A stretch of DNA of 23,561 bases, taken from a virus. Taxonomy: Duplodnaviria; Heunggongvirae; Uroviricota; Caudoviricetes. The DNA is taken from IMG/VR virus record IMGVR_UViG_2721755727_000003; one strand, 5' to 3'. Of this stretch, positions 14,900 to 22,030 are shown piece by piece. The notes below the pieces were generated by a model. It did no database searches. It was not told where the DNA came from and worked only from the letters and a program-made list of their open reading frames with translations. A program made the translations under genes and the position numbers. Each line of letters opens with the position of its first letter. Positions within the stretch are counted from its first letter, which is position 1.

Positions 14900-15196
14900 T
14901 CAGGTATGATCAAATGAGGATTTGTTACTGTCATTTAGTTGCTTCACTGACATATTCTGCGAACAACATGCCGAACGTCGTAAATATGACCAGTCAATAT
15001 CAGGACGAAGTTCTTCGCACAGAACCTCACCTCTTGTTGCACGTTCAATTGCTGGACATCTCTCGGCAGGCAATTGACGTACCCCTTTGATCCATTGATT
15101 TACGCTTGGAGGTGATACACCTAAAAGCCTAGCCATTGCTGATTGCCCACCGACAACAGCACAAGCTTGCTTGAATGAATAGTTCTCTTTTTTCAT
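14900..15196 (-). CDS. ydaS: Cro-like HTH (XRE-family) regulator, 98 aa
   Basis: HTH motif (QSAMARLLGVSPPSVNQWIKG); divergent from racR; GGAG RBS about 9 nt upstream of the ATG. Confidence 0.88.
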   Translation of the reverse strand: MKKENYSFKQACAVVGGQSAMARLLGVSPPSVNQWIKGVRQLPAERCPAIERATRGEVLCEELRPDIDWSYLRRSACCSQNMSVKQLNDSNKSSFDHT

Positions 15197-15319: not shown

Positions 15320-15796
15320 ATGCTTAGTGGTAAAGACTTAGGCCGAGCGATAGAGCAGGCCATTAACAAAAAAATCGCATCGGGATCCGTCAAATCAAAG
15401 GCGGAGGTCGCACGCCACTTTAAAGTCCAACCACCATCAATTTATGACTGGATTAAGAAAGGCTCTATAAGTAAAGATAAACTTCCAGAATTATGGCGTT
15501 TCTTTTCTGATGTTGTTGGTCCAGAGCATTGGGGGCTTAACGAATACCCCATACCAACCCCCACCAATTCAGATACAAAAAGTGAACTTTTAGATATAAA
15601 CAACCTTTATCAAGCAGCCTCTGATGAAATAAGAGCGATTGTAGCTTTCCTGTTATCTGGAAATGCTACAGAACCAGATTGGGTTGACCACGATGTTCGC
15701 GCCTACATAGCAGCGATGGAAATGAAAGTGGGTAAGTATCTGAAAGCTCTTGAATCTGAACGGAAAAGCCAGAACATCACAAAAACTGGAACTTAA
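15320..15796 (+). CDS. racR: Prophage repressor (CI-like), 158 aa
   Basis: HTH near the N-terminus (KAEVARHFKVQPPSIYDWIKKG); flanked on both sides by operator-like palindromes; divergent from ydaS. Confidence 0.9.
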   Translation: MLSGKDLGRAIEQAINKKIASGSVKSKAEVARHFKVQPPSIYDWIKKGSISKDKLPELWRFFSDVVGPEHWGLNEYPIPTPTNSDTKSELLDINNLYQAASDEIRAIVAFLLSGNATEPDWVDHDVRAYIAAMEMKVGKYLKALESERKSQNITKTGT

Positions 15797-15891: not shown

Positions 15892-15935
15892 ATTAGGCAT
15901 AGCCTATTGACAATCAATTAGGCATTACCTATAGT
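15892..15935 (+). promoter_or_regulatory. PL-like promoter downstream of racR with candidate RacR operators
   Basis: -35 TTGACA (15907..15912), 17-bp spacer, -10 TATAGT (15930..15935). Operators ATTAGGCATAGCCTAT (15892..15907) and ATTAGGCATTACCTAT (15917..15932). The 13-bp block GCCTATTGACAAT is shared, inverted, with the ydaS promoter. Confidence 0.5.
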
Positions 15936-16249: not shown

Positions 16250-16405
16250 ATGCAAAAAATCGACCTCGGCAACAACGAATCCCTGGTGTGCGGCGTGTTC
16301 CCCAACCAGGATGGAACGTTCACTGCCATGACGTATACCAAAAGCAAAACATTTAAAACCGAAACTGGTGCGCGCCGATGGTTGGAGAAGCACACAGTAA
16401 GCTAA
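16250..16405 (+). CDS. ydaF: Small Rac prophage protein, 51 aa
   Basis: Manual translation MQKIDLGNNESLVCGVFPNQDGTFTAMTYTKSKTFKTETGARRWLEKHTVS; its stop overlaps the convergent sieB stop by 4 bp. Confidence 0.7.
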   Translation: MQKIDLGNNESLVCGVFPNQDGTFTAMTYTKSKTFKTETGARRWLEKHTVS

Positions 16406-16890
16406 CGATTAAAACGTCTACTCCTGCTGTTCCAGAATAACTTCATAAAATGGGAGTATTTTTCGGTGACGAGATAATAAGAACAGTTTGCGCTATCACT
16501 CTGATGTTGAATGATGCCCTTCCGTTCTAATTTTTTCATAACCGGGTTACGGCAAGGAGAAGTGATAATAAGATTTCCTGTTTTAAGGAAATCTTTAAAT
16601 ACAGCGATTTCTTTCTCAGATAAACGAAGCAATACTCGTTGCTCTGGTAGTAATGAATAATGCTTTTGAATATGTGCTCGCAATCTTGAGAAGGAAATGG
16701 CGACCACGAAAGAAAAGGCAAAAACGATAATCTGAAAGAGCCAAGGTATTTCAGTATAAGCATTGAATGCGACAGTAAACTCTTTCGGTATCAGCCAGAG
16801 AGTGAGACCAAAAATGATAATCGTATACATAAGTCTTTCGAGTGGCTCGTTAGCAAAAAGTTTCAACAATGGAGTAAATACATCCAACAT
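16402..16890 (-). CDS. sieB: Superinfection exclusion protein B (membrane protein), 162 aa
   Basis: Protein MLDVFTPLLKLFANEPLERLMYTIIIFGLTLWLIPKEF... recognised as SieB; an in-frame upstream ATG at 17013 would add 41 codons (203-aa track ORF). Confidence 0.82.
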   Translation of the reverse strand: MLDVFTPLLKLFANEPLERLMYTIIIFGLTLWLIPKEFTVAFNAYTEIPWLFQIIVFAFSFVVAISFSRLRAHIQKHYSLLPEQRVLLRLSEKEIAVFKDFLKTGNLIITSPCRNPVMKKLERKGIIQHQSDSANCSYYLVTEKYSHFMKLFWNSRSRRFNR

Positions 16891-17108
16891 ATCAATAACT
16901 CTCAACTGTAAGGGTATTGAAATGTTAACACAAGCTCTCGCTGTAGGGGTATAGCCGAGACCACCGAAGCCCGGAGGTGGTGAAATAAAACCGGGCACAA
17001 CACGAAGGCGCATTTCCGATATCCATAAAGAGTCGGTCTTGTCTGTTAAATTTAAATGGTGGGAGTGCGCCTCCGGTTGTAAATAACGACATTGCTGTGT
17101 GTAGTCCT

Positions 17109-17158
17109 GGCGGCATCAGTTTTTTTCTTGAAGTTCGGCTGATGTCCGCCCTTTTTAA
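17109..17158 (+). terminator. Terminator-like inverted repeat upstream of kilR
   Basis: GGCGGCATCAG (17109..17119) and CTGATGTCCGCC (17139..17150) form an ~11-bp stem around a 19-nt loop, followed by CTTTTTAAA. Confidence 0.35.
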
Positions 17159-17331
17159 AGTGAATTTTGTGATGCGGTGAATGCGGCTAAGCGCACGTGG
17201 CACAGTTAAAAGTCATGTTAGTCCTTATTGGTTTGGGTGGGAAAGCCGACTGTAATTGTTAACTGGTTGCAGTCACCTGGAGGCACCAGACACCGCATCA
17301 ACAAAGTTCATTTGTAAAAATGGAGATAATT

Positions 17332-17553
17332 ATGATTGCACATCACTTCGGAACTGATGAAATACCACGTCAGTGTGTGACTCCTGGCGATTATGTTCTT
17401 CATGAAGGCCGGACATATATTGCCTCGGCAAACAATATTAAAAAGCGAAAACTATATATTCGTAACCTGACCACAAAAACATTCATTACTGACCGCATGA
17501 TTAAAGTCTTCCTCGGTCGTGATGGTTTACCTGTAAAGGCGGAGTCATGGTGA
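17332..17553 (+). CDS. kilR: Cell-division inhibitor (kil protein), 73 aa
   Basis: Protein [35 protein letters not shown]...; GGAG 6 nt upstream; the stop overlaps the ydaE start. Confidence 0.88.
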
Positions 17554-18078: not shown

Positions 18079-18103
18079 ATAGCCTGCGTATGGCGCAGGC
18101 TAT
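18079..18103. other. Perfect 10-bp inverted repeat (hairpin) between racC and recE
   Basis: ATAGCCTGCG-TATGG-CGCAGGCTAT, starting 6 nt after the racC stop. Confidence 0.5.
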
Positions 18104-18174: not shown

Positions 18175-20775
18175 ATGAGCACAAAACCACTCTTCCTGTT
18201 ACGGAAAGCGAAAAAATCATCCGGTGAACCTGACGTCGTCCTGTGGGCAAGCAACGATTTTGAATCGACCTGTGCCACTCTGGACTACCTGATCGTTAAG
18301 TCAGGTAAAAAACTGAGCAGCTATTTTAAAGCTGTTGCCACGAATTTTCCTGTCGTTAATGACCTGCCCGCTGAAGGTGAGATCGATTTTACCTGGAGTG
18401 AACGCTATCAACTCAGCAAAGACTCCATGACATGGGAACTAAAACCGGGAGCAGCACCAGACAACGCTCACTATCAAGGCAATACCAACGTCAACGGCGA
18501 AGACATGACTGAGATTGAGGAGAATATGCTACTCCCAATTTCTGGCCAGGAACTGCCCATTCGTTGGCTTGCTCAACACGGCAGCGAAAAACCGGTAACG
18601 CACGTTTCACGCGACGGACTCCAGGCATTACACATTGCTCGGGCTGAAGAACTACCGGCTGTTACTGCCCTGGCTGTTTCCCACAAAACCAGCCTGCTCG
18701 ACCCGCTGGAAATTCGCGAACTCCACAAACTGGTTCGTGACACTGACAAAGTTTTCCCTAATCCTGGTAATTCAAACCTGGGACTGATAACTGCTTTTTT
18801 CGAAGCATACCTGAACGCTGACTACACCGATCGAGGACTGCTGACAAAAGAGTGGATGAAGGGTAATCGTGTTTCACACATCACTCGCACGGCTTCCGGT
18901 GCTAATGCTGGCGGCGGAAACCTCACCGATCGCGGCGAAGGTTTCGTACACGATCTGACGTCACTGGCGCGCGACGTAGCCACTGGCGTACTGGCCCGTT
19001 CAATGGATCTGGACATCTATAACCTTCATCCGGCACACGCTAAACGCATTGAGGAAATTATCGCTGAAAATAAACCGCCCTTTTCTGTTTTCCGCGACAA
19101 ATTCATCACCATGCCTGGCGGGCTGGATTATTCCCGCGCCATCGTGGTTGCGTCCGTAAAAGAAGCACCAATTGGGATCGAGGTCATCCCCGCGCACGTC
19201 ACTGAATATCTGAACAAAGTACTGACTGAAACCGATCATGCCAACCCTGATCCGGAAATCGTGGATATTGCCTGCGGTCGCTCCTCTGCCCCGATGCCGC
19301 AGCGAGTAACAGAAGAAGGAAAACAGGATGATGAAGAAAAACCGCAACCATCTGGAACAACGGCAGTTGAACAGGGAGAGGCTGAAACAATGGAACCGGA
19401 CGCAACTGAACATCATCAGGACACGCAGCCGCTGGATGCTCAGTCACAGGTAAATTCTGTTGATGCGAAATATCAGGAACTGCGGGCAGAACTCCATGAA
19501 GCCCGGAAAAACATTCCATCAAAAAATCCTGTCGATGACGATAAATTGCTTGCTGCATCACGTGGTGAATTTGTTGACGGAATTAGCGACCCGAACGATC
19601 CGAAATGGGTAAAGGGGATCCAGACTCGCGATTGTGTGTACCAGAACCAGCCAGAAACGGAAAAAACCAGCCCAGATATGAATCAACCTGAGCCAGTAGT
19701 GCAACAGGAACCGGAAATAGCCTGCAATGCCTGCGGCCAGACTGGCGGGGATAACTGCCCTGACTGTGGTGCGGTGATGGGCGACGCAACATACCAGGAA
19801 ACATTCGATGAAGAGAGTCAGGTTGAAGCTAAGGAAAATGATCCGGAGGAAATGGAAGGCGCTGAACATCCGCACAATGAGAATGCTGGCAGCGATCCGC
19901 ATCGCGATTGCAGTGATGAAACTGGCGAAGTCGCAGATCCCGTAATCGTAGAAGACATAGAGCCAGGTATTTATTACGGAATTTCGAATGAGAATTACCA
20001 CGCGGGTCCCGGTATCAGTAAGTCTCAGCTCGATGACATTGCTGATACTCCGGCACTATATTTGTGGCGTAAAAATGCCCCCGTGGACACCACAAAGACA
20101 AAAACGCTCGATTTAGGAACTGCTTTCCACTGCCGGGTACTTGAACCGGAAGAATTCAGTAACCGCTTTATCGTAGCACCTGAATTTAACCGCCGTACAA
20201 ACGCCGGAAAAGAAGAAGAGAAAGCGTTTCTGATGGAATGCGCAAGCACAGGAAAAACGGTTATCACTGCGGAAGAAGGCCGGAAAATTGAACTCATGTA
20301 TCAAAGCGTTATGGCTTTGCCGCTGGGGCAATGGCTTGTTGAAAGCGCCGGACACGCTGAATCATCAATTTACTGGGAAGATCCTGAAACAGGAATTTTG
20401 TGTCGGTGCCGTCCGGACAAAATTATCCCTGAATTTCACTGGATCATGGACGTGAAAACTACGGCGGATATTCAACGATTCAAAACCGCTTATTACGACT
20501 ACCGCTATCACGTTCAGGATGCATTCTACAGTGACGGTTATGAAGCACAGTTTGGAGTGCAGCCAACTTTCGTTTTTCTGGTTGCCAGCACAACTATTGA
20601 ATGCGGACGTTATCCGGTTGAAATTTTCATGATGGGCGAAGAAGCAAAACTGGCAGGTCAACAGGAATATCACCGCAATCTGCGAACCCTGTCTGACTGC
20701 CTGAATACCGATGAATGGCCAGCTATTAAGACATTATCACTGCCCCGCTGGGCTAAGGAATATGCAAATGACTAA
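18175..20775 (+). CDS. recE: Exonuclease VIII (5'-3' dsDNA exonuclease), 866 aa
   Basis: Length and sequence match RecE; the 3' end overlaps the recT start by 8 bp. Confidence 0.95.
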
Positions 20776-21633: not shown

Positions 21634-21828
21634 ATGAGATATGACAATGTTAAACCATGTCCATTTTGTGGTTGTCCATCAGTAACGGTGAAAGCCATTT
21701 CAGGATATTACCGAGCGAAGTGTAACGGATGCGAATCCCGAACCGGTTATGGTGGAAGTGAAAAAGAAGCACTCGAAAGATGGAATAAACGAACCACTGG
21801 AAATAATAATGGAGGTGTTCATGTATAA
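21634..21828 (+). CDS. ralR: Restriction-alleviation protein Lar / RalR (reported toxin of a type I toxin-antitoxin pair), 64 aa
   Basis: Cys-rich protein MRYDNVKPCPFCGCPSVTVKAISGYYRAKCNGCE...; ATG at 21634 (in-frame alternatives at 21622 and 21595). Confidence 0.8.
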   Translation: MRYDNVKPCPFCGCPSVTVKAISGYYRAKCNGCESRTGYGGSEKEALERWNKRTTGNNNGGVHV

Positions 21829-22030
21829 AATTACCGCCACTATTGAAAAGGAAGGTGGCACTCCTACTAACTGGACAAGATATTCAAAATCTAAACTAAC
21901 GAAATCAGAATGCGAAAAAATGCTCTCAGGTAAAAAAGAAGCAGGCGTTTCCAGAGAGCAGAAAGTAAAACTGATAAATTTTAATTGCGAGAAACTTCAG
22001 TCCTCGAGAATTGCATTGTATTCAAATTAA
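21821..22030 (+). CDS. ydaC: Rac prophage protein YdaC, 69 aa
   Basis: GGAGG 5 nt upstream of the ATG at 21821; the start overlaps the ralR stop. Confidence 0.7.
   Translation: MYKITATIEKEGGTPTNWTRYSKSKLTKSECEKMLSGKKEAGVSREQKVKLINFNCEKLQSSRIALYSN

Follow-up and report, generated by a model that had tools for sequence, protein, structure and literature searches.

What is the purpose of the inverted repeat that lies between sieB and kilR in the Rac prophage? The DNA analysed here (hereafter the window; 23,561 nt, IMG/VR record IMGVR_UViG_2721755727_000003) is the Rac prophage of Escherichia coli K-12, and its positions 16900–17400 are 100% identical to K-12 derivatives. A first-pass annotation, made from the letters of the sequence, described a terminator-like hairpin in this intergenic region and proposed that it could stop transcription arriving from a PL-like promoter through ydaG and ydaF, which would help to keep kilR and recET silent. 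The features that bear on this proposal are listed in Table 1.

Table 1. Features of the window around the sieB–kilR intergenic region, in window coordinates.
Feature	Position	Strand	Remarks
ydaS	14900-15196	-	
racR	15320-15796	+	
Sigma-70 promoter-like site	15907-15935	+	TTGACA-17 nt-TATAGT, 11/12 consensus; between racR and ydaG
ydaG and ydaF		+	after racR
sieB	16402-16890	-	
Candidate extended -10 of kilS, TGtTAAATT	17044..17052	+	TG 17044-17045, hexamer TAAATT 17047-17052
kilS (b4833), 98-nt Hfq-dependent sRNA	17059..17156	+	RefSeq identity
RprA-like segment	17079..17111	+	28/33 identical; KilS nt 21-53 versus RprA nt 48-80
RNase E site in KilS	17090 (MG1655 1418471)	+	Clarke 2014, via Bar et al. 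Table S6 (PMC8175672)
Exact 16-mer ATTGCTGTGTGTAGTC, common to KilS and MG1655 rprA	17091-17106	+	presumed seed of processed KilS
KilS Rho-independent terminator and presumed Hfq-binding 3′ module	17109..17156	+	element of the first-pass annotation
Stem 5′ arm GGCGGCATCAG	17109-17119	+	direct reading
Hairpin loop, 19 nt	17120-17138	+	
Stem 3′ arm CTGATGTCCGCC	17139-17150	+	T17145 bulged
C17151, then U-tract TTTTT, then AAA	U-tract 17152-17156	+	
kilR leader	17157..17331	+	homologous to Qin dicF-dicB spacer; reached only via terminator read-through
kilR (FtsZ inhibitor)	17332..17553	+	first gene downstream of the hairpin; RefSeq, ORF list
ydaE, racC, then recE and onwards	recE 18175-20775	+	

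Re-reading of the sequence bears out the inverted repeat and T-run as first described (17109-17156), with a stem of 11 bp, 8 of them G–C pairs, around a 19-nt loop, and the distance to kilR, given as about 175 bp, is 174 nt to the RefSeq kilR ATG (17332). As + strand RNA the hairpin folds at -19.5 kcal/mol (z = -4.3), an energy equalled by none of 200 shuffles. The - strand RNA folds at -15.7 kcal/mol, but its stem is not followed by a U-tract, which makes the element one-directional. Among 45-nt windows taken from both strands of the whole window, the hairpin ranks 48th of 15,672, and it is one of about five sites in a whole-window scan at which a fold of -17 kcal/mol or lower directly abuts a T-run. 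The hairpin is confirmed as a real feature and does not reflect chance.

Two routine searches passed over it. A simple terminator scan made no call at the hairpin because the scan permits only loops of 3–8 nt, and an inverted-repeat search did not report it because of the bulge. The G+C-rich stem and the U-tract on the transcribed strand (C plus five U) are those of an intrinsic terminator. The loop is longer than the 3–8 nt that terminators usually, though not by strict definition, have: in K-12 it spans 19 nt and may form a 4-bp inner stem, and no relative exceeds it, their loops running from ~8 to ~15 nt.

What the first-pass annotation missed is that the hairpin belongs to an sRNA gene already annotated, whose transcription starts at a site of its own 50 nt before the repeat. 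The MG1655 RefSeq record (NC_000913.3) carries kilS (b4833, ‘small RNA KilS’) as an ncRNA at 1418405-1418502 (-), and sequence comparison matches its 98 nt exactly to window positions 17059-17156. KilS, an sRNA of the Rac prophage, thus ends in this hairpin and U-tract, which form its Rho-independent terminator and in this capacity are already known. We rejected the idea of an unannotated attenuator, as the hairpin belongs to annotated kilS.

KilS was described by Bar, Argaman, Altuvia and Margalit (2021, Front Microbiol; PMC8175672), who called it sieB.kilR.IGR when predicting it from RIL-seq data. Northern blots with two probes detected the RNA in the wild type and not in an hfq deletion strain, and it accumulates in stationary phase (PMC8175672). 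The same study places the start site at 1418502 (window 17059) and, from RNA-seq and northern size, the 3′ end at MG1655 1418405 (window 17156, the last U), and it reports yncL as a reproducible RIL-seq partner. That study treats KilS simply as an sRNA derived from the 5′ UTR of kilR and partnered by yncL (PMC8175672). The hairpin module of KilS is very probably its Hfq-binding 3′ end.

The earlier proposal of a plus-strand intrinsic terminator upstream of kilR–recET in the early-left region of Rac is correct, and an RNA 3′ end is reported at its U-tract (PMC8175672). Mapping of RNA 3′ ends, which the first-pass annotation had named as the check, gives a divided answer: the end at 1418405 is present in Bar et al. 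and absent from the curated Term-seq set of Adams et al. 2021, which covers earlier growth phases (LB OD 0.4 and 2.0, M63). Because KilS is a late stationary-phase RNA of low abundance, we regard the missing Term-seq end as weak counter-evidence, and the KilS 3′ end rests on RNA-seq and northern blots of one laboratory. The nearest ends in the Adams 2021 set lie at window 16999 (+), 15413 (+, inside racR) and 18075 (-), with no others nearby. The KilS start is not among the start-site calls of Ju et al. 2019.

Two of these Term-seq ends mark features of their own. The orphan end at MG1655 1418562 (-), window 16999, falls just past a hairpin, GCCCGG...CCGGGC (16970-16999, +); it precedes the KilS start by ~60 nt and lies antisense to what was formerly the long sieB ORF. 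No U-tract is present, and the end could reflect processing, or Rho action, on RNA that comes from the PL-like promoter. On the opposite strand, a strong terminator-like hairpin at 18079-18103 (-), between recE and racC (ATAGCCTGCG...CGCAGGCTAT, then TTCTTTC), coincides with the end at MG1655 1417486 (+), window ~18075, which is classed as ‘antisense racC’ and has the largest value (296292) among the neighbouring entries listed. Hairpin and 3′ end together imply an unannotated RNA that runs antisense to recE at its 5′ end. Elsewhere in the window, Rfam matches above threshold are IS009 at 1273-1471 (-; 220.9 bits) and the RalA antitoxin sRNA at 21827-22005 (-; 225.1 bits), which is annotated in MG1655.

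At the other end of the gene, TGtTAAATT looks like the promoter element of kilS: the candidate TAAATT hexamer ends 6 nt ahead of the KilS start site, and L004 and L005, two loci of the KilS type, conserve the motif. A consensus promoter scan made no call at this candidate -10 because a good -35 is absent. The putative promoter and the start site are flanked by a 15-nt inverted repeat of 80% complementarity (17003-17017 and 17061-17075; CGAAGGCGCATTTCC and GGGAGTGCGCCTCCG), which could pair in read-through RNA coming from upstream or, as DNA, could be a regulatory site.

Does the hairpin also silence the genes beyond it? Its main role might be to end transcripts that run from the site at 15907-15935, which is likely the PL analogue of Rac and lies downstream of racR where such a promoter is expected, through ydaG and ydaF, and so to hold kilR and recET silent. 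The hairpin has the correct strand for this, lies between ydaF and kilR and carries a U-tract, and the TTGACA-17-TATAGT site upstream is strongly promoter-like. Support also comes from the Qin prophage, in which the homologous terminator makes the 3′ end of the 53-nt DicF sRNA and both terminated ydfABC-dicF and read-through ydfABC-dicFB-ydfD transcripts are found; as the homologue yields both kinds, a partial stop of PL-like transcripts is plausible in Rac. The established silencers of kilR, however, are repression by RacR and t_rac, a terminator within racR that depends on Rho and NusG (Shashni et al. 2014, PMC4150792). Failure of t_rac is lethal through kil expression (PMC4150792), and repression of nusG by OxyS leads to read-through into kilR. 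Because the lethality of kilR on Rho/NusG failure has been mapped to t_rac, the hairpin alone cannot hold transcription back. A Term-seq 3′ end at window 15413, inside racR, is consistent with t_rac.

Displacement of RacR argues in the same direction. Genes upstream (ydaG and ydaF) and downstream (kilR, ydaE, racC and ydaC) of the hairpin then rise together, 40- to 70-fold, so the hairpin is leaky and much transcription passes it. Its five U and 19-nt loop likewise lead us to expect a modest termination efficiency, of the kind observed with the dicF homologue, for which we found no published measurement at the KilS terminator. The element is moreover served by a putative promoter of its own and yields a stable Hfq-bound RNA. 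We therefore consider silencing unlikely as the main role of the hairpin. The claim that it keeps kilR and recET silent is not supported; that it stops PL-like transcripts survives in part, as a plausible effect by homology with Qin dicF that is limited by extensive read-through.

The hairpin and t_rac share the direction of transcription, a position upstream of kilR and a restraining effect on kilR, but t_rac needs Rho and NusG and lies ~1.7 kb upstream in racR, whereas the hairpin is factor-independent and leaky. The hairpin is best viewed primarily as an sRNA terminator and only secondarily as something that partly attenuates transcription into kilR. Transcripts from the kilS promoter, or from the PL-like promoter once derepressed, that pass the leaky terminator would become kilR-ydaE-racC-recET mRNA, and the hairpin would attenuate transcription of kilR–recET without silencing it.

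The link to Qin extends well beyond the terminator. Alignment of the Rac (kilS-kilR) and Qin (dicF-dicB) loci shows clear similarity from the 5′ arm of the stem through to the downstream start codon, and the pairwise alignment shows no similarity 5′ of the stem. In a permissive scan, the Rfam DicF model (RF00039) matches 17096-17151 over its full length (39.1 bits, E = 4e-7), which is below the gathering threshold of 48. On the same model Qin dicF scores 76.7 bits, L004, a KilS-seed locus that carries a DicF-type hairpin body, 53.8 (above threshold), L005 44.9 and L003 35.6. The region of the kilR leader (17153-17339, +) is ~80% identical to dicB-adjacent regions in thousands of E. coli genomes, and the leader carries long invariant blocks such as TAATTGTTAACTGGTT and CACCTGGAGGCACCAG. 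It also has a weak match to Rfam STnc100 (28 bits; Qin 34, relatives 28–44, threshold 47), and may act, as a structured 5′ UTR common to these loci, on the translation of division-inhibitor genes.

Because the terminator and the 175-nt leader are homologous to those of Qin, KilS–kilR is the Rac counterpart of dicF–dicB, by position and by sequence: an sRNA, a conserved leader and a small division inhibitor in an early-left operon. As in DicF, the homologous terminator (GGCGG...CCGCCCUUUUU) is joined to ~175 nt of downstream leader; the sRNA follows a DUF1391 gene (ydaF in Rac, ydfA in Qin) in a lambdoid early-left operon and directly precedes the small division inhibitor and its conserved leader; and the literature gives Hfq dependence, accumulation in stationary phase and involvement of RNase E for both RNAs.

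The two sRNAs differ at the 5′ end, with CAUUGCUGUGUGUAGUCCU as the seed of KilS and UUUCUGGUGACGUUU as that of DicF, which pairs with ftsZ, xylR and other mRNAs. The DicF seed is absent from KilS and the two seeds are unrelated, so targeting of ftsZ by KilS is not expected. The inner stem and 19-nt loop of KilS are also unlike those of DicF, KilS begins at a start site of its own while DicF arises solely through processing of the dicBp transcript, and the gene downstream is kilR for KilS and dicB for DicF.

Similar combinations recur in viral contigs. At least 120 of them were returned by an exact-match search with the 3′ arm, U-tract and opening leader bases, and in 117 usable loci we compared the 60 nt upstream for seed class. 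These loci fall into a DicF class (UUUCUGGUGACGUUU), a KilS class ((A)CAUUGCUGUGUGUAGUC(C/U)U and close variants), a class with CCAUGUUGAUUACC and at least one further class. The seeds other than those of DicF and KilS, CCAUGUUGAUUACC and CGUGGUGUACCCAUU (loci L056, L092, L097, L076, L049 and L106), sit on the same terminator–leader scaffold. No link emerged to svsR, a prophage sRNA of strain NC101 that we considered as a candidate relative and rejected.

The hairpins themselves vary in their inner stems (CAUCAG/CUGAUG, UAUCAG.../CUGCUCUG and GUAUC/GAUAC) and in their loops (~8 to 19 nt), and individual folds give every variant of the family a G+C-based stem followed by a U-tract. Two stem pairs have changes on both sides that preserve pairing, in an imperfect alignment. 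A consensus from MAFFT and RNAalifold retained just 8 pairs; the variable loops shift the arms out of register, and we therefore relied on the individual folds.

Conserved pairing also bears on whether the repeat acts as DNA. An 11-bp inverted repeat between divergently oriented genes might be the operator of a dimeric protein in a sieB–kilR control region. Across relatives, however, the arm sequence and spacing change while pairing is kept; the U-tract is on one strand only, an RNA that ends there has been detected, and the repeat search found no half-site repeat nearby. We rejected the operator on these grounds and give it hardly any credence.

Seed, hairpin and downstream gene are mostly linked as modules, with rare recombinants. 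DicF seed, DicF hairpin and dicB occur together in 67 loci and KilS seed, KilS hairpin and kilR in 20; a DicF seed and DicF hairpin precede kilR in two loci, a DicF seed with a KilS hairpin precedes dicB in one, and a KilS seed with a DicF hairpin precedes dicB in another. Among species-representative genomes, the exact junction of KilS seed and terminator is found only in Escherichia and Shigella, plus two metagenome bins.

Such mixed combinations, together with the abrupt start of the Rac–Qin homology at the 5′ arm of the stem, could mean that the terminator–leader block is mainly a recombination linker between lambdoid modules and that any resemblance of the attached KilS seed to a host sRNA, RprA, is an accidental passenger. 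We think this improbable: the seed core GCUGUGUG is kept in several KilS-type variants that have otherwise diverged, and the RNA is bound by Hfq and forms specific chimeras. A linker role and a regulatory role can both be true.

The reading that we prefer gives the seed a regulatory role and draws on its likeness to RprA. When KilS was shuffled 20,000 times with its dinucleotides preserved, not one shuffle reached its local alignment score with RprA, and the corresponding Gumbel p of ~6e-7 survives correction for a few thousand families. The shared 16-mer sits 2–3 nt ahead of the terminator stem in both RNAs. RNase E with Hfq cuts RprA between GA and AUU to give a stable mature species of ~50 nt (Chao 2017, PMC5222698); this cut is the start of the 16-mer, so mature RprA begins with the same 16-mer. 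The single RNase E site reported for KilS lies at the same edge as that of RprA, to within 1 nt (the coordinate was converted in this analysis, and the side of C17090 on which the cut falls is uncertain by 1 nt). KilS thus has the 5′-end sequence of mature RprA, AUUGCUGUGUGUAGUC, next to a terminator and with an RNase E site at its edge. It does not have the three-stem-loop architecture of RprA, of which nt 48–80 alone find a counterpart in KilS, and the Rfam RprA model (RF00034) gives 28.1 bits (E = 0.34) against a threshold of 70.

A target may also be shared. yncL is a target of RprA in both RIL-seq and TRIC-seq, which makes it an experimentally detected partner of both KilS and RprA in published interactomes. 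In the predicted duplex of the KilS seed with yncL all 16 nt are paired (-15.9 kcal/mol), at -40 to -17 from the ATG, but this energy is not significant relative to chance (p ~0.05 with shuffled targets, ~0.2 with shuffled seeds), and an alternative predicted site in the yncL 3′ UTR has a similar score. RNAduplex runs on full-length RNAs gave meaningless long-range pairings. We rejected the seed–yncL pairing as independent proof, as it is no better than shuffles, and the argument from a shared target rests on the published interactome data.

RprA and KilS thus resemble each other in 28 of 33 nt, in the 16-mer, in the RNase E site at its edge, in Hfq dependence and in yncL as a partner. Their settings differ, RprA being an Rcs-regulated sRNA of the core genome. 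KilS lacks the first two stem-loops of RprA and the CCCCU of its rpoS-pairing region, so activation of rpoS is not expected, and its terminator is unrelated to that of RprA. In the minimum free energy fold of full-length KilS, the 5′ part of 17061-17108 (+; KilS nt 3–50) pairs with the RprA-like seed, and processing by RNase E might thus be needed to expose the seed.

Taken together, the sequence statistics, the coincident RNase E site and the shared partner support the suggestion that KilS joins an RprA seed to a DicF scaffold. RNase E would trim KilS to a putative species of 66–67 nt that has 5′-AUUGCUGUGUGUAGUC exposed and the DicF-type terminator attached, and on Hfq the trimmed RNA would pair with part, at least, of the target set of mature RprA, including yncL. 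We hypothesize, with a little less than even confidence, that KilS is a chimera through which Rac taps or competes for the RprA regulon, yncL first, without Rcs, and that lambdoid prophages swap seeds of at least three to four classes on the DicF scaffold, each upstream of a division inhibitor.

In the searchable literature the KilS sRNA is found only in Bar et al. (PMC8175672), who name neither RprA nor DicF, and papers that mention both RprA and kilR draw no link between them. Within the papers searched, the DicF-type scaffold and the mature-RprA seed of KilS both appear to be unreported. A dicF-like terminator in Rac may have been recognized earlier, for instance in the work of Faubladier and Bouche (1994) on dicF-like sequences.

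Overall, we are highly confident in reading the element as the terminator of KilS, homologous to that of DicF and preceded by an RprA-like stretch, which would also act as a leaky attenuator. The hairpin itself is ordinary, being the terminator of an annotated sRNA, and it explains little of the silence of kilR and recET. That the exposed 5′ segment of KilS would be the 5′ end of mature RprA, with both RNAs captured with yncL, is a concrete and cheaply testable hypothesis; if true, a prophage would be copying the seed of a host sRNA. KilS–kilR and DicF–dicB would also be members of one family of cassettes, in which an sRNA with an exchangeable seed is followed by a division inhibitor, a view that would aid the annotation of the many sub-threshold DicF-like matches in E. 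coli and Shigella genomes.
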